From Minisyncoccota bacterium (lineage in GTDB: Bacteria; Patescibacteriota; Minisyncoccia; Moranbacterales; UBA2206), in assembly GCA_031291955.1 (NCBI GenBank), contig JARLIA010000014.1, forward strand, positions 666 through 64,665: a stretch of DNA of 64,000 nt. The letters run 5' to 3'. Under the pieces are notes generated by a model. The model saw only the letters and a program-made list of their open reading frames with translations. It searched no databases and had not been told where the DNA came from. Below are positions 8,048 through 38,073 of this stretch, piece after piece. The position numbers were made by a program, and so were the translations under genes. How positions within the stretch are numbered: position 1 is the stretch's first letter; the number at the start of each line of letters is the position of its first letter.

Positions 8048-11000
8048 TTACGGAATTTGCTGAAACATCCCTGTCAAATTGTGAAAAACAAATCCAGCCA
8101 ATGAGCCGCCTGCGTAACCATTTGGAATCTCTACCCAACCCAATAAATAATCGTTATAAGGTATCTGTGGGAGTGTTGCCACAGCTTGCGTTGCTTCAAT
8201 GCTCCCTTTGATAATTTGCGGTGAGTGAGTTGGGCTTAGCACTATAGCGACTTTCCGATAACATGTACCAGTGCCTGATCCCGTACACCACGCAAACGGC
8301 ACACCGGCGGCTGTGCAACTAGCGCTACAATCGGTTGTTGTATTTACACCAGTCAGATCCCACCAGTTGTCATGTGCCGTCCAATTATAAAATGTGCCAT
8401 TAAGAACCAGGGTGGCGTTGTTCGAGCTTTTCACGTAACCAGCATTTGTGGCGTTGGTAAGTCCTGCCCCATTGGCATTATCCAGTATGCCGTAGCCTTG
8501 GCTAGCGCCTTCTATCATATTATTCACCATCATACCTGTTTTCCAAGTGCTTGATGGGGGTGTTCCTGGAAAAAAGAGATCAGTTGTAAAACCTGAAACA
8601 TTATTACCTGATATATTAGTTTGTCCTGTAGTGACATCTATCCCATAATCCGCAGTTATACCATTTATTGTTTGACCGATGACTGTATTGCCAGTTATAT
8701 TCACGCCGTATGAAGCACACGTTCCGGTTCCGTTCCCTGTGCAACATGCAAACGGTACACCAGGAGCCGTACACTGTCCGTTACTTGTACTTGTTGCTAT
8801 TCCGCGAGTTCCACTTACATAATTATTTGAAATTTGTGTCCTTGCGTTTGTATTGATTGCATAATTCGTTCCAAGGCACCAATCTAGTAGTGCTATTCCG
8901 TAACCAGAACCGTTTGTAGTCCAGTTTCCGGTAACTACATTATTAACGATTTGTGTCCCAATTCCTGAAAGTACAATTCCTTCTTGTATATTTTCTACGT
9001 GATTTCCGTCCACTATCATATTCACAGAGTTGCGGTGGGAGTTTATAGCTTGCCCGCCATTAAGCGGAGGTAAGGCACCGCTAAACGAACACCCCTTAAT
9101 TGTAGGGTTCCAATCTAATTCATAACCTGCTGATGTAATGCCATTTCTAACGTTTATTCCTTTACTGTTTTCAATAGTTGCCCAATTATTTCCATTACTC
9201 AAGCTATAAGGATAGCCGGCTGGATAAGTTGTATCAGCACAGTTATACACTTCGTTATTTGTCATTAAGCCATGATCAGTCCAGTTAAAATCAAAACCGC
9301 CAACGTCACAATTAGTACTCTTGCTGTCCATAATAATTGGACTGTTAGCATATCGTATTCCAACAGCACTTTGTCTTTGTCCTGATCCTGCGCCTGTGAT
9401 TTTTACATTATCTAGTACAGGATTCTCTATAGGAATAATCCTAGTGAGAGTCATTACATATCCACTTCCCGCACTAATTGTATAATCAGTTCGAAGTCCT
9501 GTTTTTAATGTTATCGTGTTATTTCCAACAGATGCAATTGAGGACAGTTCGCTTGTTACATAATTTCCAGTTCCACAACCACCCCATGGCTGAGTGGATA
9601 TAATTTCCAGCATGTCACCAGGGGCAAATCCGGTTGAATTTGCAACATTAAGCGTTAGCGTTGTTGTAGGCACAAACGTATTAGTTACATCCAAAGGGCC
9701 GGTGACTGTGGTTGTCGTGGTTGTAACTGTGCCTGATATCATTAAAGCTGTATAAGGTGGGCCGCATGTACCAGCATGATAACCCGTGCAGCATCCATAA
9801 GGAGCGGCGGCGGCTGTACATGCGTTATTGCCTGTAGAAATCAAATTTACACAGTCAAGAGCCAGGTCTTTAATAGTTAAATTATTGATATTTGTATAAA
9901 CTATATACTCATTATCTTTGTAAGTTTTTGATACATCGCCTAAAAGTGTGCCTCCAACATTTACTAATGAATTACCGGCTGCTTGAAGAGCTGCAAAATC
10001 ATCAGTAGAATCATCTCCCTTCGCTCCAAACCACTCTGGATAGACCGTCCCGCCATTGCTGAACGTCACGGTTCCCGTCCCTGCAAATATCTGGTAACGT
10101 CCAGCGGTTGGTATGGACATGCTTAGCGTGTGTCCCGTAGTAGTGATCGTCGCTCCCTGCATTGGCCTTAAATCGCAGGTGAGAGCCAGATCACCCGTAA
10201 GCGTCACGGGCGCGGTCAGATAGACCGTTCCGGCAAAGTTCGCATCGGCTGTAAGTTGGGCCAGGGTGTTGGCGGTTATATACGTACCTCCTATTTTTAC
10301 CGAGCCATCAAATTGCGCATTCCCGTTCACCTCCAATGCCGCTTGGGGATTGGTCGTACCGATTCCCAAGTTTCCTTGGATCGCCACATTGCCGTCGGCC
10401 ATCAGCTGGCTAGCATAGAGCGAACCGAAAGTGGCGCCACCAACCACCGACAATTGAGAACCGGGAGACGTCGTTCCGATTCCTACTTGACCGGAACTGT
10501 TAACCGTCAGTCCTTCCATTCCTCCGCCCGCGCTGATATGGAGCGGATTGAGAAGCGATCCAGTGTTGGTGGTGATGTTCATGAGATATCCTGTTCCGGA
10601 ATTTCCAGTGGTATCTGAGAGACTAAAAAGATCATTCGAGCCAGTACTCGCGCCGAAAGTCAAACCAGCCTTATTGCTTCCCATCGAAAGGGTGGTGTTT
10701 TGAGTGGGATTCCCCAGTTGGCTAAAAGGCAGCGTTCCGGAGAGACTGCCGGCGGTGGTAGCTGTCGTTGCATTGGTTGCATTGGTTGCGGAAGTCGCGC
10801 TGGTGGCTGTCGCGGCGTTGCCGGAAATACTGATGCCGTAAGTGCCGGAGATGAGAGCATTAGCAGTCAGCGTGCCGGAACCGGCCGAAAGAGTTTGTCC
10901 ACTCCCAAGACTAAGAGCCTGATCCAATTTGGACGCGGTGATGGCGCCATTGTTGAGACTTATGGTAACACCGCCGCCGAGGATTGAGTTGCTACCGCCG

Positions 11001-11758
11001 GCAACAGTCAGGCCGGAAGAGCCGGTGATATCGCCCGTCGACTCATTGGCCCATTTATTGGAACTGTTCATAACCAAAACATCGCCCGCGGCCGGGTTGG
11101 AGATATCAGTGTCAGTAAGAGCCGAGAGAGTGGTCACGCCGCCGGAGCCGACTATTTCCGACCAGCCGGTGTTGGTAGCGGTGCCGGAAGTTTTAATGTA
11201 AAGCTTGTCATTGGTCGAATCGATAGCCATATCTCCCACCGACCCGGTCTGGACGCCATTGGGATCGCCAGTGCCCTGATAGACACTGGTGCCATTGACA
11301 GCATCGGCGTTAAAAGCGTAGGCGGCCGCACCGATCCGTTGTCTCGGAGACATCTCAACATCGGTGCCAACAGTGATGCCGGCGTAGTAAGTGTCCTGGG
11401 AAAAATCCACCGTCATCGTGTTGCCGGATCCCGAACCGAGGAGCACCGTAAAATTACCATCTTTGACAGCGACCGCATTGCTGTTAGCAGTAGTGTAATT
11501 GCCTGTCCAGACCGGCGTGCCGCCGGTGGCAGTGGTGTAAATTTTAAACACCATGTCATAATTGCCGTCAGTCGCGATAGCTCCACTGAAAGATTTTAGA
11601 ACACCGAAGTAGGTCAGTTCCTTGTTAATACCGGAAGCGGCTTTCACGTTATGGAAAACAAAAAGACCTCCCAAGAGAATCAGGGAAATCAAAAGATATC
11701 TGAAAAGTTTCGAATTCCGCGGTTTAATTAAGAGAGAGGGTAGGCTTGGGAATTTCAT
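8048..11758 (-). CDS. Giant secreted protein with tail-fibre-like repeats and a pectate-lyase-fold (right-handed beta-helix) depolymerase-like domain
   Basis: It has an N-terminal signal/TM. Tail-fibre-type repeats (VGIGTTSPGSQLSV, LGIGTTNPQAALEV) and the beta-helix signature YPEWFGAKGDDSTDDFAALQAA are present. Three Cys-rich repeats of the form CTA(A/P)GVPFA(C/W)CTG(N/S)GTGTC also occur. Confidence 0.6.
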   Translation of the reverse strand: MKFPSLPSLLIKPRNSKLFRYLLISLILLGGLFVFHNVKAASGINKELTYFGVLKSFSGAIATDGNYDMVFKIYTTATGGTPVWTGNYTTANSNAVAVKDGNFTVLLGSGSGNTMTVDFSQDTYYAGITVGTDVEMSPRQRIGAAAYAFNADAVNGTSVYQGTGDPNGVQTGSVGDMAIDSTNDKLYIKTSGTATNTGWSEIVGSGGVTTLSALTDTDISNPAAGDVLVMNSSNKWANESTGDITGSSGLTVAGGSNSILGGGVTISLNNGAITASKLDQALSLGSGQTLSAGSGTLTANALISGTYGISISGNAATATSATSATNATNATTATTAGSLSGTLPFSQLGNPTQNTTLSMGSNKAGLTFGASTGSNDLFSLSDTTGNSGTGYLMNITTNTGSLLNPLHISAGGGMEGLTVNSSGQVGIGTTSPGSQLSVVGGATFGSLYASQLMADGNVAIQGNLGIGTTNPQAALEVNGNAQFDGSVKIGGTYITANTLAQLTADANFAGTVYLTAPVTLTGDLALTCDLRPMQGATITTTGHTLSMSIPTAGRYQIFAGTGTVTFSNGGTVYPEWFGAKGDDSTDDFAALQAAGNSLVNVGGTLLGDVSKTYKDNEYIVYTNINNLTIKDLALDCVNLISTGNNACTAAAAPYGCCTGYHAGTCGPPYTALMISGTVTTTTTTVTGPLDVTNTFVPTTTLTLNVANSTGFAPGDMLEIISTQPWGGCGTGNYVTSELSSIASVGNNTITLKTGLRTDYTISAGSGYVMTLTRIIPIENPVLDNVKITGAGSGQRQSAVGIRYANSPIIMDSKSTNCDVGGFDFNWTDHGLMTNNEVYNCADTTYPAGYPYSLSNGNNWATIENSKGINVRNGITSAGYELDWNPTIKGCSFSGALPPLNGGQAINSHRNSVNMIVDGNHVENIQEGIVLSGIGTQIVNNVVTGNWTTNGSGYGIALLDWCLGTNYAINTNARTQISNNYVSGTRGIATSTSNGQCTAPGVPFACCTGNGTGTCASYGVNITGNTVIGQTINGITADYGIDVTTGQTNISGNNVSGFTTDLFFPGTPPSSTWKTGMMVNNMIEGASQGYGILDNANGAGLTNATNAGYVKSSNNATLVLNGTFYNWTAHDNWWDLTGVNTTTDCSASCTAAGVPFAWCTGSGTGTCYRKVAIVLSPTHSPQIIKGSIEATQAVATLPQIPYNDYLLGWVEIPNGYAGGSLAGFVFHNLTGMFQQIP

Positions 11759-12607: not shown

Positions 12608-15600
12608 TTATTTCAATCCGGCCATGACCACCACCGTAGCTTTCCTTTCGAACTTCCCCCACTTGACCAGACGGCCTTTCAAGGCCGTGACAACCGCCTT
12701 GATAGCCACGTAATACATAAGCTGGCGATAATAGAAACGCTGGAGCGGCAACCAAAACAGCAGTCGCCAATCTTCTTTGTGTTCAAGGAAAAACGGGATG
12801 GCCGCCGTAACCAGATCGACCAGCAGGAAGAATATATAGAAAATAAGAAATTTCTTGAAAGCGTAAAGCGGAGAAATGTCGCCGGCCGGATGAAAATAGG
12901 TCTGCCAAGCTCCCCAGAAAAGCGTAATGACCATCATTAGATCCATGAGAGGCGAGACGAGAGGAAAGAAAATCTGGAAGATAAAGATATTTGGAATGCC
13001 AAGAAAGCCCAGCGCATTGTATTCCTTTTTCACAGCCAGGTCCTTGTGTTTCCAGGCAGTTTGGAACATCCCATACATCCAACGGAAACGCTGCTTGATA
13101 AAATTTTTAGTGGAATCAGGCGCTTCGGTATAAGCAATGGCTTCGTCGTCATAGGCAACCTGATGCCCCTGACGGATAATGCTAAACGTCAGATCTGCAT
13201 CTTCCGCCAAAGTGTCCTCGGAAAATCCTCCAGCCTCCAAGATAGCGCTTCGCCGCCAAGCACCGACCGCTCCGGGCACCACCGTAATGCAATTAAGCGC
13301 TTCAAAAGCCCGCCGATCCAGGTTTTGACTGGTGATATATTCCAGCGCCTGCCAACGCGTGAGAATATTTATCCGGTTCCCCACCTTGGCGTTGCCAGCC
13401 ACCGCCGCCACTCTCCGGTCCAGAAAGCAGCGCACCAGCTTTTCGATCGTATCCGATCGGAAAACCGTATCCGCGTCGAGAGTCACAATTATTTCCGCTT
13501 TGGTCATCGCGATGCCGAAATTGAGCGCTGATGATTTCCCGCCATTTTCTTTCCTGAAGATTTTGACCCAGCCGTTTTTCCCGAAATTATTTTCTAACAC
13601 CGCCCAAGTGCCGTCCGTTGATCCATCGTCAACCACGATAATATTGAAATTCGGATAAGTCGATCGCAAAATGGAATCAACCGTCTTGACAACAACTTTT
13701 TCTTCATTGTAAGCGGGAATGATGACGCTAACCGAGGGTTTGTAGTGGACGGTTCGGGAAAGTTTCCGCCAAGCACCCCTCCGGGAATGAGTCCACTGGG
13801 CAATCGCCAGAAGTCCGATAAAAATGAACCGAGCCGTTCCCAGAATGATTCCAACCTTAAACATCAGCAGCATAAATTGATTGAATCCGGAAGCGACCTG
13901 GACCGTTATGTCGTTGGCATAAGCGATAGCTCTTTCCTCGAACGTAATTTTCGGCATCACACTGTCTCTCGAAATCCCGAGCAAATCGGAAACCGGGACA
14001 ATCTGAAATCCCGCCGCCCGCAATCCCTCGATTATTTTCGGCAAAGCTTGGACTGTTTCTTCACGGTTGCCGCCGCCGTCATGGAGCAAAACGATGTTTC
14101 CCTGTCCGTTCTTGGCGGCCGTAAGAACCCGATTGACAATCTGAGAAACGCCGGGACGTGTCCAATCAGATGGATCAATATGCATCGAAACGGTGTAATA
14201 TCCAAAATTACTGGAAGACAATGGCTTCACCTGATCGGGCGTGGTCGGTTCAATATCTTCGGCGTAAGGCGGGCGAAAAAGCAAGGTTTTGTGTCCGGTG
14301 ATCGCTTCGATGACCCGCTGGGTGGCGCCTACTTCAAAAACAAACTGGGCGCCGGTTATCTTGGAAATATCTGGATGAGTGTAAGTATGATTGCCAATTT
14401 CATTGCCGTTGACATATTCCTCTCGGACTATATCCGGACTGAAATTGGCGTTGACGCCTATTACGAAAAAGGTGGCCGAAGCATTCTCTTTCTTTAGAAC
14501 GTCCAAGATTTGAGGGGTATATTTATTGTCCGGGCCGTCATCAAAAGTCAAGGCGATTTTTTTACTGCCCGTCCCCCAGCGATTGATTACGTAGGGAGAT
14601 GGGTAGCTCATGATCTGAGTTTTTTTTATGAGTCCCGAAGCGGAATCATAGTTTATTTGGCGCCAACCGCCCTGGGGCGTTTCAGTCACCCGCAAAATCT
14701 CACCCTGACCCTGATAACTGATGTCATAACCATATTGCATATTGGATAACGCTTGGGCGGCGGAAGCGTCCAGATTTTTGTCATTTATAAAATCATTCCA
14801 GACGGTCGGATCTTCCGCTCCGAGCCGCCAAAGAGCGAACCCCGCCGGAGCGCCCGACCGTTCGGCGGCTACCATCTGGTCGTAAACAGAAACACCATCT
14901 AAAAACCAGACATGATGAAGAATATTGTTGGCGTCGGTATAATCAAAAGTCGGATTAAGCGACTGACTGTCGAGATTCACCGCAGCGTTCGCTTTTTTAG
15001 CTTCCTGGATCGCCTGCTCGAAAGTGAGATCAATTCCCGAACCCGAGGGAGCGGGGTTGTCTCCAGACCAGTCATAGCCATAGTTCCCCAGAGAAATAAT
15101 GAATTTTTTGGCTGAAACCTCGGAAAATCTGTTCGCAATTTCCGCCTCAAACCAAGGCTGGGAAGCGATCGGCCCGGGTCCGGTATCATAAACATCATGT
15201 TCGTCATATGCCATCAGGATCAAATAATCGGCGTTCTGACTAAGCGCCTTGTAATTGAATGACGAGTCATCCAGGGGCACATTCATGGTCACCTCCAGTC
15301 CCAGCGGATGGAATTTTTGATAAAGTTCCTGCATGAACAACACCAAATCGGGCTGATCCTGATTTGACACATTCTCAAAATCAATTGAAATTCCGGCAAA
15401 TTTATTCTGCTGGACGTAAGTTAAAAGACTGTCCGCTGTTTTGGTTCGCAAGGCCGGGTTTTCCAACATCGCGGATAGGCGCCCGCCGTCAAAGGCCTGA
15501 GTCTGATTGTTGAAATTATCGATAAGAGGCGTAATGCGCAAGCTGGGACGATTGGCTTGGATATAACCCCAGACATCCGATTGGTAAGACTGGTTGTAAG

Positions 15601-16057
15601 GCGTCACCGTACCCTGGTTGTCGGAAAGATTGAGCCACTCGGGCACCAACTGATCAATACTGCCCAGATTCTGCTTAAGCGACACCAAGCTGTTGTCGTC
15701 CCAGTTGACAAAATAGGCCAATGTTTTGGGTTTTGTTGTGGTCGGATCAACCGGATCCATCGCCTGTCCGACCAGAAGAGCGTTCTGCATAAATGGGATT
15801 TGAAGACCAGGCGCGCCCAAACTGGCCGGGGCGCTCGCGGCCGCAATGCCAGAAGCTGACTGCGGCGCGCTCCGATAAACTCCGGCCGGATCCTGGATAT
15901 CCAGTTTTGGAAGTTTGGGCGGAATAATGACACTAGCCAAAGTGACGCTAAAAACTGTCGCTAAAAAAAGGACGAGTGGAACAAGCGTCCTTTTGGAATA
16001 GCGCCAGCGTCGGTGTTTCTTATCATAAAAAATTGGAGGTTTTTTTTGCGCAGTCAT
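12608..16057 (-). CDS. Multidomain exopolysaccharide enzyme: N-terminal TM, GH18-like domain, NodB/CE4 polysaccharide deacetylase, TM segment, processive GT2 synthase (PgaC/IcaA/NodC-like), and C-terminal TMs
   Basis: The GH18 domain shows FAGISIDFE. The CE4 domain shows TFDDGPD and GNHTYTHP. The GT2 domain shows VIIPAYNEE, VVDDGSTDGT and QRFRWMYG (the QxxRW motif). Confidence 0.7.
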   Translation of the reverse strand: MTAQKKPPIFYDKKHRRWRYSKRTLVPLVLFLATVFSVTLASVIIPPKLPKLDIQDPAGVYRSAPQSASGIAAASAPASLGAPGLQIPFMQNALLVGQAMDPVDPTTTKPKTLAYFVNWDDNSLVSLKQNLGSIDQLVPEWLNLSDNQGTVTPYNQSYQSDVWGYIQANRPSLRITPLIDNFNNQTQAFDGGRLSAMLENPALRTKTADSLLTYVQQNKFAGISIDFENVSNQDQPDLVLFMQELYQKFHPLGLEVTMNVPLDDSSFNYKALSQNADYLILMAYDEHDVYDTGPGPIASQPWFEAEIANRFSEVSAKKFIISLGNYGYDWSGDNPAPSGSGIDLTFEQAIQEAKKANAAVNLDSQSLNPTFDYTDANNILHHVWFLDGVSVYDQMVAAERSGAPAGFALWRLGAEDPTVWNDFINDKNLDASAAQALSNMQYGYDISYQGQGEILRVTETPQGGWRQINYDSASGLIKKTQIMSYPSPYVINRWGTGSKKIALTFDDGPDNKYTPQILDVLKKENASATFFVIGVNANFSPDIVREEYVNGNEIGNHTYTHPDISKITGAQFVFEVGATQRVIEAITGHKTLLFRPPYAEDIEPTTPDQVKPLSSSNFGYYTVSMHIDPSDWTRPGVSQIVNRVLTAAKNGQGNIVLLHDGGGNREETVQALPKIIEGLRAAGFQIVPVSDLLGISRDSVMPKITFEERAIAYANDITVQVASGFNQFMLLMFKVGIILGTARFIFIGLLAIAQWTHSRRGAWRKLSRTVHYKPSVSVIIPAYNEEKVVVKTVDSILRSTYPNFNIIVVDDGSTDGTWAVLENNFGKNGWVKIFRKENGGKSSALNFGIAMTKAEIIVTLDADTVFRSDTIEKLVRCFLDRRVAAVAGNAKVGNRINILTRWQALEYITSQNLDRRAFEALNCITVVPGAVGAWRRSAILEAGGFSEDTLAEDADLTFSIIRQGHQVAYDDEAIAYTEAPDSTKNFIKQRFRWMYGMFQTAWKHKDLAVKKEYNALGFLGIPNIFIFQIFFPLVSPLMDLMMVITLFWGAWQTYFHPAGDISPLYAFKKFLIFYIFFLLVDLVTAAIPFFLEHKEDWRLLFWLPLQRFYYRQLMYYVAIKAVVTALKGRLVKWGKFERKATVVVMAGLK

Positions 16058-16222
16058 TTTTGTTTTTCGGTATAATAGTTATAAAAAATCCTTTTCCAGA
16101 ATATTACAACAATAATACAGCCAGTCTTGCAAAAAATATCCCCCCAATCAGATCAAAGAAAAGAAGCGCTCAAAAGAGCGCTTCTTACGATTACATTCAT
16201 CCTATGATTTTTAATATTTAAT

Positions 16223-17137
16223 TTAATTCCAATAAACCTGATCAGCAGTGATGATCTGTTTCCATGGACCGCTGGGCACTTGAGAGGCCGGGATGAATTG
16301 CCAGTCAGTCCTGTCCTCGTCCGACAGTCCAAGGTAATCGTGAACAGCTGGCGAAACGTCAAGTCCGGCGTGACTGTTAGTTTTGCTGCTTGGAGTAGCA
16401 CTGCCAAAAACATAACTAGAGTCGTTTTCACCGAACGGCCCAACGTCTTCCCACTGGGCGTAAGCGATCTTGCCGCCTTTGGTGATTTTTATCCACTGGT
16501 TCTTGCAAACACTGTCTTGGGAGCCGTATTTTTCCCCGGCCGCCCAAGGCACCACGGACGCTAAGTTTTTCCTATGATTGCCATTGCCGTCGAAATCATT
16601 GTATGGCAGGGCGAAGTAGAAAGGATTTTCTTTGGGTGTAAATCCGGCCGGCAGATAGCCGTTTCTTTTGCCGGGATTATCCACGCCGCCGAAATGAGCT
16701 TGCCAATCATCATCCCAAGCACTGGAAGTATTGGAAATGTCCTTATTATCCGAATCACCCGGCTCTCCCACCCAGAAGTAGGTAGTTGAAATATTCGCGT
16801 GCAGCGGATATGAATTGGCAACGATGGCCGTTTCGGCTGAAGTTGTCTGATCGTTCTGAGACGCCGCACTGGCACCAGGAGCATTGTTCGTTTCTGCCGT
16901 CCCGTTGCTACTAGCCGGCTGGCTATCAGTTTGGCTCGTGTTCGATTTCTTCTTTTTATTTTTTGCTGCTTGCGGTTTTGTTTTTTGCGCCTCCGCTCTT
17001 TGGACATTCCATTTGCCACTGGCGGCCAAAGTGATCGAAGTCGCCCCGGCCAGCACGATCAGCAGGATCGATGCTTTGTAAATAAATTGTTTTTTGTTTT
17101 TTATTTTTATTTTGTCGATCATTTTTTTGATTGACAT
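16223..17137 (-). CDS. Secreted protein with putative DPBB (RlpA/expansin-like) domain, paralog 1
   Basis: It has a signal/TM, a low-complexity linker and a Trp-rich domain: TTYFWVGE...CKNQWIKITKGGKIAYAQWEDVGPF...AGLDVSPAV.DYLGL. Confidence 0.4.
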   Translation of the reverse strand: MSIKKMIDKIKIKNKKQFIYKASILLIVLAGATSITLAASGKWNVQRAEAQKTKPQAAKNKKKKSNTSQTDSQPASSNGTAETNNAPGASAASQNDQTTSAETAIVANSYPLHANISTTYFWVGEPGDSDNKDISNTSSAWDDDWQAHFGGVDNPGKRNGYLPAGFTPKENPFYFALPYNDFDGNGNHRKNLASVVPWAAGEKYGSQDSVCKNQWIKITKGGKIAYAQWEDVGPFGENDSSYVFGSATPSSKTNSHAGLDVSPAVHDYLGLSDEDRTDWQFIPASQVPSGPWKQIITADQVYWN

Positions 17138-17337
17138 CTGTTTTTTTTATTAATGATTAACCCAATTATATTTTGGTGCCGAATATTTTACTATGGAACG
17201 ATAAATCGGTCAACAATCTTCTGATAAAAAGTTATCCACAGGCGATAGACCCTCCAATAAGCCCTACTTTTTCTTTTTGGCATTTTTGGATATTTTTAGA
17301 TGTAGTAAAATTAAAGAAACAGAAAACATTTTTCAAG

Positions 17338-18060
17338 ATGAAATATCTTAACCACAAAAACTTTTTTTCAGTTGTGATTTTCGTAGCGGTCATGACTGCG
17401 TCCGGTGTTTTGGTTTTTTATTCACAAAAACGCGGCCGGTCTCCTCTCCCGCTTCCGGGGATTGTCGGAATCTACTATCCGGTCCACAAAAACATCACCG
17501 TCACCACTTTCTGGGTCGGCGAAAAGGCCGATCGGTCCAACAAGTATATTGCCAACGACCAAAGCGCCTGGGACAATCATTGGCAAGATCATTATGGCGG
17601 TGCGGACAACCCGAACGACCGGAACGGTTATTTTCCGGCCGGATTTACACCCAAGGAAAATCCCTTCTACTTCGCTCTGCCATACAATGATTTAAACGAC
17701 AACGGAACAAGAAGGAGCGACGCGGCCAGTGTCGTCTATTGGTCAGGAAATCAAAACTGGAGCCCCAACCAATCCATGTGCAAGAATCAATGGATTAAAA
17801 TCACTAAAGGCGGCAAGATAGTTTATGCCCAGTGGGAGGACGTCGGGCCTTTTTCTGAAAATGATGCGGCTTATGTTTTCGGCAACGCGATACCAGAGAG
17901 TAAGACTAATAACCATGCCGGGTTGGATGTTTCCCCGGCCGTCGAATCTTATTTAGGCCTCAAGGGAGAAGATAAGATCGATTGGCAGTTTGTAACAGAT
18001 TCTCAGGTGCCCAGCGGTCCCTGGAAACAGATTGTCACCGCTTCGCAAATAAGTTTTTGA
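17338..18060 (+). CDS. Secreted protein with putative DPBB domain, paralog 2 (divergent from 16223-17137)
   Basis: Its domain is highly similar to that of 16223-17137. The probable start is MKYLNHK; the ORF track extends upstream to 17173. Confidence 0.4.
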   Translation: MKYLNHKNFFSVVIFVAVMTASGVLVFYSQKRGRSPLPLPGIVGIYYPVHKNITVTTFWVGEKADRSNKYIANDQSAWDNHWQDHYGGADNPNDRNGYFPAGFTPKENPFYFALPYNDLNDNGTRRSDAASVVYWSGNQNWSPNQSMCKNQWIKITKGGKIVYAQWEDVGPFSENDAAYVFGNAIPESKTNNHAGLDVSPAVESYLGLKGEDKIDWQFVTDSQVPSGPWKQIVTASQISF

Positions 18061-18105
18061 TTTTATAAAATCGAACAAACACCTGAACCTAAAACACCAG
18101 CTTGG

Positions 18106-18140
18106 TCAAAAAAAGAGCCTTCCAAAGAGGCTCTTTTGAC
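18106..18140. terminator. Bidirectional terminator between convergent genes
   Basis: The sequence is aaaaaa-agagcct-tccaaag-aggctct-tttt. Confidence 0.5.
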
Positions 18141-18156
18141 AACTTAATTTTCCTAA

Positions 18157-18603
18157 TTACAAAAGTTTGATCGCATCAGCCACCGTCATGATACCGACCA
18201 ACTCGCCCGAATTGTCCACCACCGGATAAGAGTTGAAGCTTTTTTCTTTGATTAATTTGATGAAATCGGTCAACTCCATGTCGGGAGAAATGTTCTCGCA
18301 TTTGATGCTCATAATATCTTTCGCGGTCGCGTTAACAACCGCCTCCAGTGCCTCCTTATCATCGTCCTCATAATTCAACTTGCCTTTTTTCATAAAATCG
18401 ATAAGAGAGGGCATATACACCATATTAGCACTGTCCTTGGTAAAAAAATCCGTTTCCGTGATAATGCCGACTACCTTCTTATTTTCATCCAAGACCGGTA
18501 CGGCATGAATCTTGTTTTTGGAAATGATTTCAGCCACTTCAGCCACCGGCATATCTTCTCCTACCGACAGAACATCCGCAGTCATAATTTCTTTTATTTT
18601 CAT
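18157..18603 (-). CDS. CBS-domain pair protein
   Basis: It contains two CBS motifs, including IMTADVLSV...HAVPVLD...VVGIITETD. Confidence 0.7.
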   Translation of the reverse strand: MKIKEIMTADVLSVGEDMPVAEVAEIISKNKIHAVPVLDENKKVVGIITETDFFTKDSANMVYMPSLIDFMKKGKLNYEDDDKEALEAVVNATAKDIMSIKCENISPDMELTDFIKLIKEKSFNSYPVVDNSGELVGIMTVADAIKLL

Positions 18604-18797: not shown

Positions 18798-19430
18798 TTA
18801 GGATTGATCGAAATCGCGAAGCGTCTTGGCATTGATGGTGTCCGAATTGTGTTTCTGCGAACCCCGGACAGACACATAATCTCCTTTGCCGATGTCGCTG
18901 GCGCGCATACTGTCGCCATTCTTATTGGAAGCATCGACCGAAGAAGTATCCACTGTGTAAGTATGGCCATTGTCAGCTTTTATAGTTATCTGATTGTTAT
19001 CCGTCGATTCGACTTTCCCATAAATGCTCACGTCAGAACCATTATTGTGGTCATTCCAGTTGTGATCCTTTTGATCATTGCGATTGGAATTATCCTTGCC
19101 GTTCCAGTTTTTGTCCTGGTTGCGCTTGTTCTGATTATCGTTGCTATTATTGTTTTGGTTATTCTGCCAATCAGCCGGTTCTTGGCCAGATTTATTGTTA
19201 TTCTGGCTGTTCTGATTCTTATTATTCTGTCCGCCCTGATTCTGGCCGTTTTGCGAACCGGAATTTTGGTTATGATTCTGATTCTGGACAGATTGCGGGT
19301 TAAAAGGCGCTTGATTGCCATCTTGCGGACCACTGGCGCTGGCCAGCCCCGCGCCGGTAAGTGCCAGTGTAGCCGCTAAACTTCCGGCAAGAAAAGCTTT
19401 CGGAGCTATTTTTTTCAACTTGTTTTTCAT
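18798..19430 (-). CDS. Secreted Asn/Gln-rich low-complexity protein with C-terminal beta domain
   Basis: A signal peptide is followed by long NQNN... low complexity. Confidence 0.4.
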   Translation of the reverse strand: MKNKLKKIAPKAFLAGSLAATLALTGAGLASASGPQDGNQAPFNPQSVQNQNHNQNSGSQNGQNQGGQNNKNQNSQNNNKSGQEPADWQNNQNNNSNDNQNKRNQDKNWNGKDNSNRNDQKDHNWNDHNNGSDVSIYGKVESTDNNQITIKADNGHTYTVDTSSVDASNKNGDSMRASDIGKGDYVSVRGSQKHNSDTINAKTLRDFDQS

Positions 19431-19579: not shown

Positions 19580-20797
19580 TTATTGCGCCTTATTTTCCAG
19601 TTTTTCATAAAAGCCATCCGGCAAATCACCGTCCAGCTTGAAAAAACTAACACCGCCCAAATGGAAATTTTTCGCGAGAGTGATTTTGTCGCCAATAGCC
19701 TCGGCATCTTCGAAAGTGACCAGATGCTCGCCATCCGCCGTTTGGAAAGTGAACCTCAATTCCCCGCCGTTCGTCCGGCTTGGAGTCGCTTTGGCCGCCT
19801 TAGCTTCGGCCAGAGCCTGTGAATAGTCCAAACTTTTTAGTTCGGCGTAGTGCCAGCCAGCGGACGTTTTTACAATTTTAAATTCCCAACCATAAGTCGG
19901 GATGCCAAGCGTTAGTTTTTGGGGAGAAATATACCGCAGGGAATATTCAACGACGCTTTTTACCCAAGATGCGTCAGCGTTCGGCGCCGCCGGCAAATCT
20001 TCGGCAATTTCAAAAGTCGCTGCCCGTTCGGTTTGGAGCGTCTGGTCGTAGGCCATGATCTGAACGACGTCGCAATATTTGTTCATAGCCGAAAAATCAT
20101 TAGCCCAACTCATAGCCCGTATTCCGGCAAAACCCGGCGGCGGAGCATCCTGAGTCCGGGCTTCCACGGCGCATTCCAACGTTTTTCCCATCGGCGCGAT
20201 TTTTTGATGAAGCACTTCCAGAAACACGCTGAAATTGTCCCGGTCGGCGATATTTTTTCCTTCATAATCGATATCCACGCCGGCAAAATTATTTTTTGTC
20301 AGCATACTCGCGATAGCGTCGATGTTTTTTTCCGCGAGATTGCTATTTACGAATGTCTGATGCATCGCCGCCGCGTCCGTCCAAAGAATAGTTGGAACGA
20401 TTTTTATATTTTTCCGGCGGATTTGGGAAAAAAGTTCCGGCCAGGGCGCGACGTTTATTTGCGCTTTATCGATCAAGCTTCCATCCGAAGCTACGCCGTA
20501 CGCGAAAGGATAAATCTCGCTGAAATGATTCAAATTGTTTTCAACGGAAGAAACGCCGACCGCCTTGGCCCAATACGTCACCCAGCCGGAAACGACAAAA
20601 GGATTGCTATTATTTTCAGAAGAAACGGCTTTGGTTGGCAACTTCTTGTTCCGACTGGCCGGCACCGGCTTATCTTTTGATAAAGTCAGAGTTGATATTT
20701 TTGAATTAAAAAAGAAAAAAGAAACAACCTCGACCATACCGGACGCCAAAATCATAACCAAAACGACAAGAACAAGATATTTATATTTTCTTTTCAT
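19580..20797 (-). CDS. Secreted glycoside hydrolase family 18-like protein
   Basis: An N-terminal TM/signal is followed by the GH18 catalytic motif FAGVDIDYE. It is similar to the N-terminal domain of 12608-16057. Confidence 0.6.
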   Translation of the reverse strand: MKRKYKYLVLVVLVMILASGMVEVVSFFFFNSKISTLTLSKDKPVPASRNKKLPTKAVSSENNSNPFVVSGWVTYWAKAVGVSSVENNLNHFSEIYPFAYGVASDGSLIDKAQINVAPWPELFSQIRRKNIKIVPTILWTDAAAMHQTFVNSNLAEKNIDAIASMLTKNNFAGVDIDYEGKNIADRDNFSVFLEVLHQKIAPMGKTLECAVEARTQDAPPPGFAGIRAMSWANDFSAMNKYCDVVQIMAYDQTLQTERAATFEIAEDLPAAPNADASWVKSVVEYSLRYISPQKLTLGIPTYGWEFKIVKTSAGWHYAELKSLDYSQALAEAKAAKATPSRTNGGELRFTFQTADGEHLVTFEDAEAIGDKITLAKNFHLGGVSFFKLDGDLPDGFYEKLENKAQ

Positions 20798-33429: not shown

Positions 33430-34831
33430 CCCCTTTCTCTATAAATTCTTCAACCTTTCTTTTTGCTTCCTCTAATAATTCTTTTGATTTTTTCCGCGCT
33501 TCGTATGACTGAATCACAAGTTCAGTGATTTTTTTCTGGATTTCTTTTGGTAGAATTGGAATCAAAACATTTTTGATCTGCTGCGGTTTCCAGTGCGCAA
33601 TAACTGATCCGCCAGCATCACGCTCAGCTTGCATTTGACCAATTTGAGAATTCAAACACAGTGCCAAATATTCTGCCTCAACTTCTTTGCTTTTCAACTT
33701 CAGGCGCAACGTTCCGCCCGACACAATTCCTTGAATATCTTTTTTCAAAACAAAAGCAATTCCCGGGGTTGCATCTTTTGTTAGCAATATTTCACCTTTT
33801 TTTGGTTCAAAATCATCTTTCAATTTTTCATAAAGCTTATCACTTAGATATTTTTGATTGCTTTCCGTGATTCCGAATTTTGTCATGCTACTAACCCGGA
33901 TAAAAATCTTACCTTCTTCTTGATATTCTTCCGCCCCAACTTCAATTCCCTTTTTCATCGAAACTAAATCGCCCAACTTGTGCACATTATGTTTTGCAAC
34001 CCTATCTTCTATTATCTTATATTTCGGCTGAAAATATTCCGCATCGATTCGATGTGCAATTTCGATATCGGAAAGATTTATGATTGATGATAACTTTTCT
34101 ACATTATCAAAACCGTCCAATTCCAATTCTCCCAAAAGTAAGTTTTCGGCTTGTTGATATTGCGTTTTAGCTTTCTCAAATTCATCCAAGCCAGCCAACA
34201 CTATCATTTTTATTTTTTGTTGAGCTTCAAGATTAACTTCGGGAAGAATTATTTTTTCAAGGCTATACAAATTCATGTGTCCTTGAACGCCTCCACTTGA
34301 TCCTCTATCGATCTGAAATTTTCCATATTTTGAATTCAGAAAAGCGGCTAAATATTCTGGCAATAGATTCTCTTTTGGTTTTATCAAAATAATATCCGCG
34401 GAATTTGCAACGGGATGATTCTCTGTAACGACACTAGCATTGCCAATTGACCCACTTCTGGCAAGCAAGACAAACCCCGGATAAACCTGGCTCTTTTTCA
34501 GTTTTTTATGAAATTCTTCGTCAATATAAACAATACCATTTTCAAAATCTGTAACAAATTCATCAACGTTTTGTGTTCTCAAAAGTGGAACTCCATCATC
34601 GCAAAAATGGCTCGCCATAGAAGACACAAAACCAACATCAATCTTTGGCGCCATCTCCTCCAATGTTAGTAACTCAAATTTTTTAAGATTTTTTTCCAAA
34701 TCCAAATATTCCGGCTGATAATATTCAGCATCCATCCGCATCGCGCCTTCGAGTTGAGATTTTTGAATTATGGAAAAATTAGTCATAAAATTTTTGAAAT
34801 ATTCCCCACAAATGAACGTATTAATAGGCAT
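33407..34831 (-). CDS. hsdS: Restriction-modification specificity (S) subunit, HsdS-like with two target-recognition domains
   Basis: The conserved N-terminal block RMDAEYYQPEY and the central repeat RIDAEYFQPKY are present. The true start may be the internal Met (MTNFS...). Confidence 0.8.
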   Translation of the reverse strand: MPINTFICGEYFKNFMTNFSIIQKSQLEGAMRMDAEYYQPEYLDLEKNLKKFELLTLEEMAPKIDVGFVSSMASHFCDDGVPLLRTQNVDEFVTDFENGIVYIDEEFHKKLKKSQVYPGFVLLARSGSIGNASVVTENHPVANSADIILIKPKENLLPEYLAAFLNSKYGKFQIDRGSSGGVQGHMNLYSLEKIILPEVNLEAQQKIKMIVLAGLDEFEKAKTQYQQAENLLLGELELDGFDNVEKLSSIINLSDIEIAHRIDAEYFQPKYKIIEDRVAKHNVHKLGDLVSMKKGIEVGAEEYQEEGKIFIRVSSMTKFGITESNQKYLSDKLYEKLKDDFEPKKGEILLTKDATPGIAFVLKKDIQGIVSGGTLRLKLKSKEVEAEYLALCLNSQIGQMQAERDAGGSVIAHWKPQQIKNVLIPILPKEIQKKITELVIQSYEARKKSKELLEEAKRKVEEFIEKGGDGYGEK

Positions 34832-34950
34832 AATATCAAGCTGTGGATAACTCCTTGCATAATCATACAGCTATGGTATTATGAGCTTGGTACTTGTAAG
34901 GGCTTTGGCCCTCTCACGGTTAAAACGTATAAACCGTAGCAAGTGCCAAA

Positions 34951-35442
34951 TCAATCATCCTCCATATTTCCTGCATGCAGGATTTTTTTATTGTTAAATT
35001 TGTTACCTGAATTTTTTTGATTGTTTTTCCAAAAAGGAATTAGGCTCCAAAAAAATTTATTTCCACCTTCAATTTCTTTAACTATTATTTTTATTCTCGC
35101 ACCATTTATTATAGCAACAAACCCATAATAACTAACTTCAACCATTTTATATTCCCATCTAGAATTAATTTTTTGTTGTTCAAACTTCCTTGTTTCATAA
35201 AATTCTTGTAAGGTATTTGACTTTTCCAATATATGAGGAGCGAGTTTTAACAACTTCAATCTTATATATTGATCACTTTTTATTCGAGCCTTGTTTTTAT
35301 TTTTGAATTTCAAATGTTCCAATCCCTTCGTATTAAAAGAAATCTTTCCACCCAAATAAGGACAATGAATTTGGCCTATTGTTTTGTAATAATTTTCGGC
35401 CTCTTCTTTTACCTTTAAAAATTTTATTTGATCAATCTCCAT
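34951..35442 (-). CDS. Hypothetical 163-aa protein between the RM methyltransferase and the S subunit
   Basis: Its start overlaps the stop of the upstream gene. No motif was recognised. Confidence 0.45.
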   Translation of the reverse strand: MEIDQIKFLKVKEEAENYYKTIGQIHCPYLGGKISFNTKGLEHLKFKNKNKARIKSDQYIRLKLLKLAPHILEKSNTLQEFYETRKFEQQKINSRWEYKMVEVSYYGFVAIINGARIKIIVKEIEGGNKFFWSLIPFWKNNQKNSGNKFNNKKILHAGNMEDD

Positions 35443-37355
35443 TATTTTTTCATAAACTTCAAAAACTCCTCCGCAATTTCGTCTAGATCGTGATCAATAA
35501 TTTTCTTTCCGCCGGCATCATACATAACATTCCCCTCGCTGTCTTTTTTATAGATATAATCCCCTGAATTGTCTTTGCCGCCTTTCTTGGAAACTGCCAT
35601 AAAAATCGGATAATCTTCGGGGATTTTTTCATCCTCATTCCATTTTTGCAAAAACAGAACTGATGTTTTTGTGCCGGTGTGCGGTTTGAAGGTGTTGTCA
35701 TGCAGTCCCACCACTGCCAACAGACGCGCCTTGCTCAAAACAAACCGCCGCACATATTCCATCTGCGTATTGTTCAAAACTCCTTGCGGCAAAACGATTG
35801 CCATCCTTCCGCCGGGCTTGAGAAAATTAAGATCGCGTTCAATGAACAAAACGTCGCGTGAAACTTTGTTTTGATGCTTGGATGTTTTTTCAAAATTTTT
35901 GTCATGTTTAAATCCAAGATCATAACGATTCAAAATCACACCTTTGATCTCTCCAGCAAATGGCGGATTGGTCAGCACGATGTCAAAATTAAAGTCAGTC
36001 ATTTTTTCCTGGTTTCTTCGGTTCTCATCAGAATCCTTGAATGTTCGCAAAAACGGTCGGAATTTCGCATGCGCTTGTTCATTCCAAACTTCACTGTCCA
36101 GCGAGTTAGCATTGGTCACATTTGTTTTACCATCGCCTGCAATGAGCATCATAGCTTTTCCAATTTTCACTGAGCGCGGATCAAAATCAATTCCGTACAA
36201 ATGTTTTTCCGCATAATCTTTTTGCTTTGCTTTGTAATCATCTTCGAAATTTTTCTTGTTTATTTCTTTGTCCCACACATATTGCATAGCATGCAACAAA
36301 AATCCGCAACTGCCCGCAGCAGTATCAATGATGAAATCTTTTGAAGTCGGCGCCAGCATTTTCACCGCCATGTCAATCACATGACGCGGCGTGAAATATT
36401 GGCCTTTTTCGCCTTTAGCATCCAAGTTAATCAGATATTCAAAGGCATCATCGATCACCTGCAGATTAGAACCAAAAAGGCGATATTTTTGCAAAAGAGA
36501 AATTGCCGGCACGATGGCATTTTCCGGAATTTCTATTTCGTCATTCGACTTGAAAACATCACGCCACTGATTTTTGGAATCCTCAAAAAGCCGCTGAATA
36601 TTGTTTAGATTTTCCTTGTTAGAAGCGCCGGCAATCACCCGAAATCTGCGATTTTCATTTCTAGGCGTTTCGATTTCATCATACAGCTTGGCATAAATAA
36701 GTTTGAAAATTTCATCAAACGAATCCACGCCGCTGTTGGCCAAAACAACTTCTTGCAAATCATAAATGAGTTGTTGCAAATTAGGAATTTCATCAAGATC
36801 ACTATATACGATTTTCTTTGAACGTACATCATCAACCGTTTCGTTAAATTTGGGAATTTCCGGCAAGTCCTCAAAAAGATTTGGGTCGGTTCGTAAAATA
36901 TTATTTTGAAGTTTTCCGTCTGTCAAAACGAGAATTGGCGCACCGGTCGCATTGGCGTAGCTTTTCAATTGCCCCAGACCATCTTTCACGTCGGGTTTTT
37001 TCACTTCAACCACAAGATAGGGAGTTTTGCCGTCTTCACGATAAATCACAATGTCCGCACGTTTTTTCCCAATCTCTCGCCCAAATTGCACATCTACTTC
37101 CACATCCATCCGGTCAAGTGGATATTTATAAAAATTTAATAATTTATAAATCATGAGTTGACGAACTATCTCCTCCGGCTTAGCTACTAACTTTTTATTT
37201 CTTTTTAAACATGGCAAATAAAACTTTCCTTCTTTTTCAAAAAGATCCAAGACTTCTTCAATTTTAATTCCCTCAAAAACAGAAAGTCCATATTGCATAT
37301 CCGGATTGCGAAAAATTTTCCCCAAAATTTCACTTGTCTTTTTTTGATCCGCCAT
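35442..37355 (-). CDS. Fused restriction-modification enzyme: N-terminal HsdR-N-like PD-(D/E)xK nuclease domain plus gamma-class N6-adenine DNA methyltransferase (BcgI-A-like / Type IIB-IIG)
   Basis: The N-terminus shows RADIVIY...PYLVVEVKKP...APILVLTDG, matching the HsdR N-terminal fold. The MTase motif DIVLTNPPFAG is present. At 637 aa there is no helicase and no separate hsdR. Confidence 0.7.
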   Translation of the reverse strand: MADQKKTSEILGKIFRNPDMQYGLSVFEGIKIEEVLDLFEKEGKFYLPCLKRNKKLVAKPEEIVRQLMIYKLLNFYKYPLDRMDVEVDVQFGREIGKKRADIVIYREDGKTPYLVVEVKKPDVKDGLGQLKSYANATGAPILVLTDGKLQNNILRTDPNLFEDLPEIPKFNETVDDVRSKKIVYSDLDEIPNLQQLIYDLQEVVLANSGVDSFDEIFKLIYAKLYDEIETPRNENRRFRVIAGASNKENLNNIQRLFEDSKNQWRDVFKSNDEIEIPENAIVPAISLLQKYRLFGSNLQVIDDAFEYLINLDAKGEKGQYFTPRHVIDMAVKMLAPTSKDFIIDTAAGSCGFLLHAMQYVWDKEINKKNFEDDYKAKQKDYAEKHLYGIDFDPRSVKIGKAMMLIAGDGKTNVTNANSLDSEVWNEQAHAKFRPFLRTFKDSDENRRNQEKMTDFNFDIVLTNPPFAGEIKGVILNRYDLGFKHDKNFEKTSKHQNKVSRDVLFIERDLNFLKPGGRMAIVLPQGVLNNTQMEYVRRFVLSKARLLAVVGLHDNTFKPHTGTKTSVLFLQKWNEDEKIPEDYPIFMAVSKKGGKDNSGDYIYKKDSEGNVMYDAGGKKIIDHDLDEIAEEFLKFMKK

Positions 37356-37356
37356 A

Positions 37357-37998
37357 TTATTTGTTTATTTTAGAAAGATTTAGAATTACCTTGCCTTGAA
37401 ATTGAACTTCGCCGGGAATAATTATCATTTTTTCATAAGCCGGATTTTCCGGTTGCAAATATCTTTTTCCGCCATCAGCGACAAAGCGCTTTACAGTCGT
37501 GCCCGCATCCGTTCGCGCAATCACAATATCACCGCTTTTATATTCTTTTGATTCTTTGATAAGCAGACTATCACCATCATCGATTCCGGCATTAATCATA
37601 GAATCTCCAGAAATTTGAATAACAAAAACTCTATCTTTTGATTCATTTATTTTTTCATTTTTTAAAACTTTTTCAGATATTGGGAAAAAGGTGAATGCAT
37701 TAGCAAAAGAATCGAGATATGATCCGCCGGCGCTAACGCCAGCCATTTTAATCAAAGGATCTCTTCCAATTTCCTTATAACCCAAAGGCAAAATTCTTAT
37801 CCCTCTCGCCTGACCATCTTCTCTTTTTATATATTCCTTTCTTTCAAGCGTATCTAAAAAGTTTATAACCGACTGGTTCGAAGATACGCCCAGCTCTTCC
37901 TTAAAATCAGAAATAGACGGCGGAAAGCCGGAACTTTCCAAAAATGTGTAAATAAATTCTAAAACTTTTTTTTGTTTTGGGGTAAGTTTAAAACTCAT
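37357..37998 (-). CDS. lexA: LexA-type repressor (winged-helix plus S24 peptidase)
   Basis: A LexA-like N-terminal HTH is followed by a C-terminal S24 domain with ISGDSM (Ser) and TTVKRF (Lys). Its stop is 1 nt from the RM start codon. Confidence 0.8.
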   Translation of the reverse strand: MSFKLTPKQKKVLEFIYTFLESSGFPPSISDFKEELGVSSNQSVINFLDTLERKEYIKREDGQARGIRILPLGYKEIGRDPLIKMAGVSAGGSYLDSFANAFTFFPISEKVLKNEKINESKDRVFVIQISGDSMINAGIDDGDSLLIKESKEYKSGDIVIARTDAGTTVKRFVADGGKRYLQPENPAYEKMIIIPGEVQFQGKVILNLSKINK

Positions 37999-38073
37999 AT
38001 ACCCATTATATATGACTGTTTGTACACGTCAAGTTCTTTACATAAGGCTATTTATTCAAAACTGTTGATAACT

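Follow-up and report, generated by a model that had tools for sequence, protein, structure and literature searches.

The described proteins closest to the subject of this study share the double-psi beta-barrel (DPBB) fold. They are RlpA (PF03330), a lytic transglycosylase of Gram-negative bacteria, and the small RlpA-type protein PA4485; the expansins (EXLX1, domain D1) and loosenins; and the GH45 endoglucanases and the viral chitosanase V-Csn. In RlpA, expansins, and GH45 enzymes, the key residue is the Asp of the second motif. Here, we analyze two genes, A and B, that lie head to head in a 64,000-nt stretch of contig JARLIA010000014.1 (the window) from a Minisyncoccota bacterium, next to a gene for a large all-in-one synthase. 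This organism belongs to the Patescibacteria, a group in which the envelope and the means of attachment are poorly understood. A and B represent a new sequence family inside this known fold, and the consistent genomic association of the family is also new. We modestly favor the reading that their shared domain is an extracellular module that would bind, and possibly cleave, a partly de-N-acetylated hexosamine exopolysaccharide.

It is useful to contrast the A/B family with each of these proteins. Unlike RlpA and PA4485, it has no match to the hidden Markov model of that family. It also differs from RlpA in carrying a ∼90-residue insertion after strand 1, in having no SPOR domain that we could find, in the spacing between its two Asp motifs (29 residues versus ∼12), in its presence in archaea that lack murein, and in its partners, which are exopolysaccharide enzymes. 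Unlike expansins and loosenins, it consists of a single ∼200-aa domain without D2/CBM63 and without a Pfam expansin match; compared with expansins, it is far more conserved and is tied not to plant cell walls but to enzymes of hexosamine polymers. GH45 endoglucanases and V-Csn likewise share no sequence-model match with it.

Two further systems bear on the locus through its neighbors and relatives. Among the accessory proteins of poly-N-acetylglucosamine (PNAG) synthases, namely Streptomyces MatA with MatB (CE4 plus GT2), IcaD, and PgaB/PgaD, the nearest described layout to A and its synthase is matA-matB, where a small membrane protein is encoded upstream of a CE4 plus GT2 synthase and PNAG production depends on matA (PMC5972031; PMC4391728). 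The likeness is one of layout: in both cases, a small membrane protein without a recognized domain is encoded immediately upstream of a synthase that joins CE4 to a PgaC-like enzyme. Unlike matA, which is translationally coupled to matB, A is usually separated from the synthase by a terminator and, unlike MatB, the synthase here also has a GH18-like domain. The second system comprises the GH114/GH191 endo-alpha-1,4-galactosaminidases of the Ega3 type, which target cationic exopolysaccharides containing galactosamine (GalN) (PMC12054363). Hundreds of bacterial proteins annotated as such enzymes carry the A/B family domain N-terminally. GH114 itself is a TIM barrel, and the DPBB portion of these proteins is a distinct domain that annotation passes over; A and B lack GH114 altogether.

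Results

The sequence-only reading that preceded this analysis described two divergently transcribed paralogs that start ∼200 bp apart and share near-identical blocks, and all of this was borne out. The open reading frames (ORFs) lie where it placed them, the gap between their start codons is 200 bp (Table 1), and every block that it quoted was found, with small differences in B (VTTFWVGE; GYFPAGF...). BLASTP aligns A with B over 198 residues without a gap, 133 of them (67%) identical (E = 5e-103). Thus, the similarity survives proper alignment. At the DNA level, the two domains are about two-thirds identical and their synonymous sites have diverged, and the pair is therefore neither a recent duplication nor an assembly artifact. 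A tblastn search of the 64-kb window found no third copy. Protein A is a 100% match to entry P0001, a “hypothetical protein” from a Candidatus Pacebacteria metagenome-assembled genome (MAG). The B ORF could start farther upstream, with a TTG at 17173; we take the ATG at 17338 as its start on the basis of homolog N termini and the 240-aa entry P0060.

An alignment of 33 family members (alignment A1) reveals a common plan: a short basic N terminus, one hydrophobic segment (∼18–20 residues in A and B), a variable linker, and the ∼200-aa domain. It is a reasonable inference from these sequences that A and B are exported or membrane-anchored. The linker region, columns ∼45–160 of the alignment, is unconserved. 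Ahead of the domain there are 103 residues in A and 40 in B, with ranges of 85–108 for A-type and 40–56 for B-type copies. Invariant acidic residues of A include E125, D231 (in WEDVGP), and D260 (in GLDVSP), the latter two also numbered D128 and D157; their counterparts in B are E62, D168, and D197.

The family is large. Among 5.8 billion indexed proteins, 1678 match at E ≤ 1e-3, and the best 120 matches are 61–72% identical, none of them named. A profile search of 50%-identity representatives gave 1361 clusters at E ≤ 1e-3, 571 of them at E ≤ 1e-30, and at least 557 stretches in species-representative genomes encode a relative. Our neighborhood counts concern the 80 loci most similar to A (the best 80 of at least 557), which are 53–70% identical to it. 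They derive from Patescibacteria (Moraniibacteriota, Parcubacteria, Saccharimonadia, and Gracilibacteria); from other bacteria (Campylobacterales, Aquificota, Thermodesulfobacteriota, Planctomycetota, Bacteroidota/Ignavibacteria, Atribacterota, Spirochaetota, and Verrucomicrobia); and, at 53–60% identity, from archaea (Thaumarchaeota/Nitrosopumilales, Methanoperedens, and Iainarchaeum). The neighbor-joining (NJ) tree of the family is not congruent with taxonomy, and horizontal transfer probably contributes to the high identity seen across phyla. A tblastn search with the domain found no match in 72,556 plasmids and 50,697 phages. Several genomes carry two members on separate contigs (L020/L022 in MAG fen_1326, L025/L026 in Solincola sediminis, L021/L031 in MFD10541, and L061/L066 in L_MetaBat.182; L-numbers are our locus labels), which indicates that unlinked paralogs are common besides head-to-head pairs.

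The domain is also highly conserved. In a set of 88 domains drawn from both bacteria and archaea, 60 of the 201 positions reach ≥95% conservation, including nine Asp/Glu and most of nine Trp, and the median isoelectric point (pI) is 4.8. B keeps all 60 of these residues, and only two positions distinguish B-type from A-type copies. Yet, despite its size and conservation, the family is nameless in Pfam and NCBIfam, in cultured vent bacteria it goes unmarked as the N-terminal half of proteins annotated as polygalactosaminidases, and we found no description of it in literature pairing DPBB or expansin with Patescibacteria, GH114, PNAG, or exopolysaccharide.

The modeled domain forms a six-stranded double-psi beta-barrel. 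Structural scores were highest for the Streptomyces papain inhibitor (SPI; 7.3), kiwellin (7.2), a Clavibacter expansin (7.1), and PA4485 (7.0); fungal and plant expansins (6.2–7.0), the GH45 enzyme Cel45A (6.5), cerato-platanin (6.1), a barwin-like protein (5.8), loosenin (5.6), and V-Csn (5.3) completed the list, and Foldseek ranked the same families at the top. Only 86–118 of the 201 residues align to known structures, and the remainder of the domain is the family-specific insertion after strand 1, which is rich in invariant residues. On these models, we regard as solid the placement of the ∼200-aa domain as a divergent DPBB of the barwin-like endoglucanase superfamily.

Membership in RlpA/DPBB_1, expansins, or GH45 is, by contrast, not supported. 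Pfam and NCBIfam scans of A and B returned noise only, with no RlpA/DPBB_1 match at E ≤ 1, and the DPBB_1 model matched none of 20 multi-domain relatives at E ≤ 0.001. Neither A nor B nor any scanned relative has a DPBB_1/RlpA, SPOR, LysM, or 3D match in Pfam, and the PDB yielded no relative by sequence, whether queried with one protein or with the profile of the family. Comparison of the family profile with Escherichia coli RlpA by hhalign gave a nonsignificant alignment of 22 columns (probability 0.14), which sets KGGKIAYAQWEDVGPFGENDSS on ANGRMIVVRINDRGPYGNDRVI (WEDVGPF..ND on INDRGPY..ND). The likeness to RlpA and expansin barrels drawn in the sequence-only reading was right as to fold, but it goes no further than fold and motif.

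One consistent partner of the family is the synthase. A full-length homolog of this fusion protein (∼1130 aa, 43–59% identical) adjoins the family gene in 21 of the 80 loci; in 19 it lies directly downstream of a same-strand A-type gene, which is the layout of the window, and two loci have another order. When all ORFs within 7 kb of the gene were clustered across the 80 loci, this homolog was the sole widely recurrent neighbor, and no other conserved neighbor was found. Adjacency to a synthase, which had been thought unusual, is therefore the conserved state of the clade. Clustering also recovered antisense ORFs, such as one at 13046–14497 (+) of the window with counterparts at the same positions in ∼17 loci; we rejected these apparent neighbors “beside” the gene as mirror-frame artifacts inside the family gene or the synthase gene.

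The best NCBIfam match of the synthase is TIGR03937 PgaC_IcaA (E = 1.7e-50, profile positions 35–400 of 407), below the equivalog cutoff. The locus has three features of a synthase-dependent, PNAG-type (pga/ica/mat-like) system: a processive QxxRW GT2, a CE4 de-N-acetylase, and linkage of the DPBB gene to the synthase. Given a PgaC-like GT2, a CE4 deacetylase, and a GH18-like domain in one enzyme, its predicted product is probably a partly de-N-acetylated poly-N-acetylglucosamine (poly-GlcNAc) of the PNAG or chitosan type; a beta-1,4-linked, chitin/chitosan-like product and poly-beta-1,6-GlcNAc are equally possible. We used RNAfold on the gap that separates the A-type gene from the synthase gene, both for the window and for 16 other loci. 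Hairpins equivalent to that of the window occur in nine of the 16 (L007, L009, L010, L011, L013, L014, L017, L022, and L023), and they are strong, GC-rich, and followed by T-runs. They suggest that A is transcribed apart from the synthase and probably at a higher level.

The head-to-head pair is itself old. A long and a short copy face each other in the window and in L001, L009, L010, L011, and L017, and L037 holds an independent tandem pair. The arrangement had been called unusual, a description that must be softened given its recurrence in five other genomes. NJ analysis separates the copies by length: all six short ones group in a single clade, the six long ones share a second clade with A-type genes that occur singly, and the two clades branch in a roughly congruent order. 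The separate clades imply that the duplication is older than these species and that the divergent layout was retained. The flanks past B, A, and the synthase are unconserved even among loci that carry the pair.

Within the region between A and B, the promoter-like site for A aligns with a conserved −35/−10-like element in other loci. The suggestion that this region might be palindromic did not hold up. It contains only short, imperfect, A/T-rich inverted repeats, the best being a perfect 9-nt pair, TAGTAAAAT (17185–17193 and 17303–17311), which presents a −10-like TAAAAT toward each gene, the second of them 27 nt upstream of the B ATG. This repeat could be a chance product of the A/T-rich composition. 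An Rfam scan of 15900–18300 returned nothing above noise. In four related genomes (L009:9496–9728, L010:9526–9749, L011:9538–9758, and L017:9383–9734), the 5′ leader of the A-type gene has a common hairpin with a T-run (TTGAAAAGCCnTTATnGGCAACATTTTTT; alignment A4, columns ∼228–257) downstream of the conserved −35/−10-like element. This hairpin, which could be an attenuator or regulatory leader, is absent from the shorter intergenic region of the window.

Relatives of the domain also occur fused to carbohydrate-active enzymes. GH114 fusions account for 20 of the 80 loci: in 18, closely related GH114 domains lie C-terminal to the DPBB domain, and in two, divergent ones lie N-terminal to it. Carriers include the complete-genome organisms Nitratifractor salsuginis, Hydrogenimonas urashimensis, and Desulfurobacterium crinifex, whose fusions are annotated as “endo alpha-1,4 polygalactosaminidase” with PF03537 alone marked and the DPBB half unannotated. 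In N. salsuginis (L088, CP002452.1, 10001–11398) and H. urashimensis (L090, AP023212.1, 10001–11356), the DPBB-GH114 gene stands alone among housekeeping genes, and in Hydrogenimonas the gene next to it encodes a PAS-GGDEF-EAL (cyclic di-GMP) protein.

Fusion to CE4 beside a GT2 gene was found in two thaumarchaeal loci, where a CE4 protein gene and a GT2 gene run in one direction and a CE4-DPBB gene in the other. In these Thaumarchaeota/Nitrosopumilales MAGs (L043:5432–10609 and L082:5462–10600), the three proteins measure 652–688, 484–486, and 512 aa, respectively; the CE4 protein of L043, the sole one scanned, has a Y_Y_Y domain. The mini-cluster looks like a hexosamine-polymer locus in ammonia-oxidizing archaea. 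Two Thaumarchaeota, Iainarchaeum, a Campylobacterales genome, and a gammaproteobacterium have, next to the family gene, a separate GT2 that is 29–39% identical to that of the fusion synthase. Esterase, PKD, Ig-like, SLH, DUF4214, and RTX modules are occasional fusion partners. Among 150 neighbors in loci without the fusion synthase, the top Pfam families were CE4 (5) and GT2 (4), and the remainder were heterogeneous housekeeping proteins.

Table 1. Features of the A/B locus and its surroundings, in window positions
Feature	Position	Strand	Description	Basis
Synthase gene	12608..16057	minus	All-in-one synthase, 1149 aa; N-terminal transmembrane segment; conserved downstream neighbor of A-type genes	
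Synthase GH18-like domain	residues 112–413		GH18-like	Pfam E 7e-18
Synthase CE4 deacetylase	residues 496–700		CE4 deacetylase	Polysacc_deac_1 E 1.3e-33; PDB CE4 matches to E 4.6e-38
Synthase GT2	residues 764–1132		PgaC/IcaA-like processive GT2	QRFRW motif from translation
Hairpin	16161..16186	minus	Intrinsic-terminator-like; 11-bp stem and T-run, between A and the synthase gene	Terminator scan, RNAfold
Gene A	16223..17137	minus	A-type, long-linker paralog, 304 aa	ORF list
A domain	16226..16828	minus	Residues 104–304; conserved ∼200-aa predicted double-psi beta-barrel	
A linker	16829..17020	minus	Residues 40–103; low-complexity, S/T/Q/N/A/K-rich; length and sequence variable among homologs	
A hydrophobic segment	17021..17074	minus	Residues 22–39 (ASILLIVLAGATSITLAA), after Lys-rich start; signal peptide or signal anchor	Translation
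Divergent intergenic region	17138..17337	.	200 bp, A/T-rich	
Promoter-like site for A	17213..17185	minus	Sigma-70-like TTGACC-17 nt-TAAAAT	Consensus only
Gene B	17338..18060	plus	B-type, short-tether paralog, 240 aa; entry P0060	ORF list
B hydrophobic anchor	17362..17421	plus	Residues 9–28 (FFSVVIFVAVMTASGVLVFY), ∼12 residues before the domain	Translation
B domain	17458..18051	plus	Residues 41–238; homologous to the A domain	
GH18 protein gene	19580..20797	minus	405 aa, membrane-anchored; intact DIDYE motif	Pfam GH18 E 2e-27

Discussion

We propose that the hydrophobic segment would tether A and B outside the cytoplasm, where the domain would engage the amino-sugar exopolysaccharide made by the neighboring synthase. 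Its acidic, Trp-rich surface (pI ∼4.8, nine Trp, and nine near-invariant Asp/Glu) may bind a cationic glycan. The Asp pair in WEDVGP and GLDVSP, motifs that we liken to the polar or catalytic Asp motifs of RlpA, expansin, and GH45, could then cleave the chain, or the domain could loosen or position it for partner enzymes. A-type proteins, with a flexible linker of 60–100 residues (∼60 in A), would be the conserved partner encoded just upstream of the synthase, and B-type proteins an old paralog kept near the membrane, ∼12 residues from the anchor. The two would thus divide their labor by reach, presumably expressed from a shared 200-bp divergent control region.

Exopolysaccharide rather than cell wall is suggested as the target by the occurrence of the family in murein-free archaea and by the GH114 and CE4 fusions; the fixed PgaC-like synthase neighbor in Patescibacteria and the acidic, Trp-rich surface point the same way. 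The label “cell-wall-loosening-like” given by the sequence-only reading therefore suits the expansin-type fold but not the probable target. Whether the domain cleaves or purely binds its glycan appears about evenly balanced. Chemistry is favored by the near-invariance of 30% of positions and by the invariant Asp pair, whereas binding is favored by a placement like that of carbohydrate-binding modules on three kinds of catalytic domain and by the many nonhydrolytic relatives of the fold. A bolder and more tentative version holds that the domain founds a new DPBB-fold family of glycan-cleaving enzymes, hydrolytic or lytic, for partly de-N-acetylated hexosamine exopolysaccharides, partnering GH18/CE4/GT2 synthases; it would have been recruited to GH114 in vent bacteria and to CE4 in ammonia-oxidizing archaea. 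We consider this possible but doubtful.

Several observations weigh against an exopolysaccharide-synthase role. The strong terminator hairpins weaken the case for a single operon, and obligate cotranscription of A with the synthase is improbable. The putative equivalence of D231/D260 to catalytic Asp residues draws on motif likeness and on the nonsignificant hhalign alignment. In ∼60 loci outside the Patescibacteria, the neighbors are mostly housekeeping genes, and the 80 loci, having been chosen by closeness to A, are a biased sample of the family. Finally, GH114 implies alpha-1,4-linked GalN polymers and the GT2 a beta-linked product, and one common substrate for the family is not established.

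The alternative that fares best, although we hold it rather unlikely, is that the domain is a noncatalytic, adhesin- or expansin-like module that glues the cell or a fused enzyme to polysaccharide, perhaps the matrix of a host or neighbor instead of its own polymer, with no dedicated role in the synthase pathway. Indeed, the domain occurs at either end of GH114, CE4, and esterase domains and on PKD, Ig, SLH, and RTX proteins, much as a carbohydrate-binding module would; its closest structures include the nonhydrolytic expansins, loosenin, cerato-platanin, barwin, and kiwellin; and many loci have no polysaccharide genes nearby. However, a binding module would not usually be near-invariant at 30% of positions between bacteria and archaea, nine acidic residues among them; in 21 genomes, the A-type gene and the synthase gene are strict neighbors; and every conserved residue is kept in both paralogs.

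A second alternative takes A and B for peptidoglycan lytic transglycosylases of the RlpA/MltA type that remodel the cell's own wall or that of a host, their adjacency to the synthase being incidental. The lifestyle of Patescibacteria is episymbiotic, which gives the host-wall variant its ground. The hhalign pairing of WEDVGPF..ND with the RlpA motif speaks for this idea, as do the best PDB matches of the synthase domains, which are spore-cortex hydrolases (YdhD and YaaH) for the GH18-like domain and peptidoglycan deacetylases for CE4. But the hhalign probability is just 0.14, and DPBB_1/RlpA, SPOR, LysM, and 3D matches in Pfam are lacking. An RlpA-type family would be expected to be restricted to murein-containing organisms and often to carry a SPOR domain, whereas relatives at 53–60% identity occur in murein-free Thaumarchaeota, Methanoperedens, and Iainarchaeum, and none of the recurrent partners (GH114, CE4, and GT2) is a murein enzyme. 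We therefore judge this explanation improbable. Least credible of all is a protein-binding DPBB with no carbohydrate role, in the manner of the Streptomyces protease inhibitor SPI or of kiwellin, which binds an enzyme. A faint NCBIfam Papain_Inhib match on B (E 0.11) and a faint kiwellin Pfam match on P0157 speak for it, but both fall far under threshold, the structural scores do not set this class apart from expansins and GH45, and the genomic and fusion partners are consistently carbohydrate-active enzymes.

The family is probably an overlooked part of amino-sugar polymer machinery, and its consistent partners (PgaC-like synthase, CE4, and GH114) yield a testable hypothesis for an uncharacterized component of exopolysaccharide systems. 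They also offer a first way into the function of a conserved surface-polymer locus in Patescibacteria. Should the domain prove to found a glycan-cleaving family, uncultured lineages would have in it a nearly universal part of their amino-sugar matrix biology that has so far been missing. The complete-genome carriers Nitratifractor salsuginis and Hydrogenimonas urashimensis make experiments feasible. A domain that is catalytic or strongly potentiating might also find use in the enzymatic dispersal of biofilms, where GH114-type enzymes already attract interest.

Other features of the window

The 405-aa GH18 protein encoded beyond B may share the polysaccharide system of this genome; a stand-alone GH18-type gene lies near a family gene at one other locus only, and it is thus not a conserved neighbor. 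Between this gene and a CBS-pair gene, positions 18798–19430 (−) encode a 210-aa protein with a signal-like N terminus; it has a long low-complexity stretch rich in N/Q/G and, near its C terminus, a weak match to DUF5666 just under the Pfam cutoff. Two genes downstream of the synthase, a 1236-aa ORF without a Pfam match (8048–11758, −) may encode a large surface protein. Finally, G+C content falls to 0.35–0.38 at 34001–38000, compared with ∼0.45 elsewhere in the window, and this segment may represent an island or a group of genes with a different composition.

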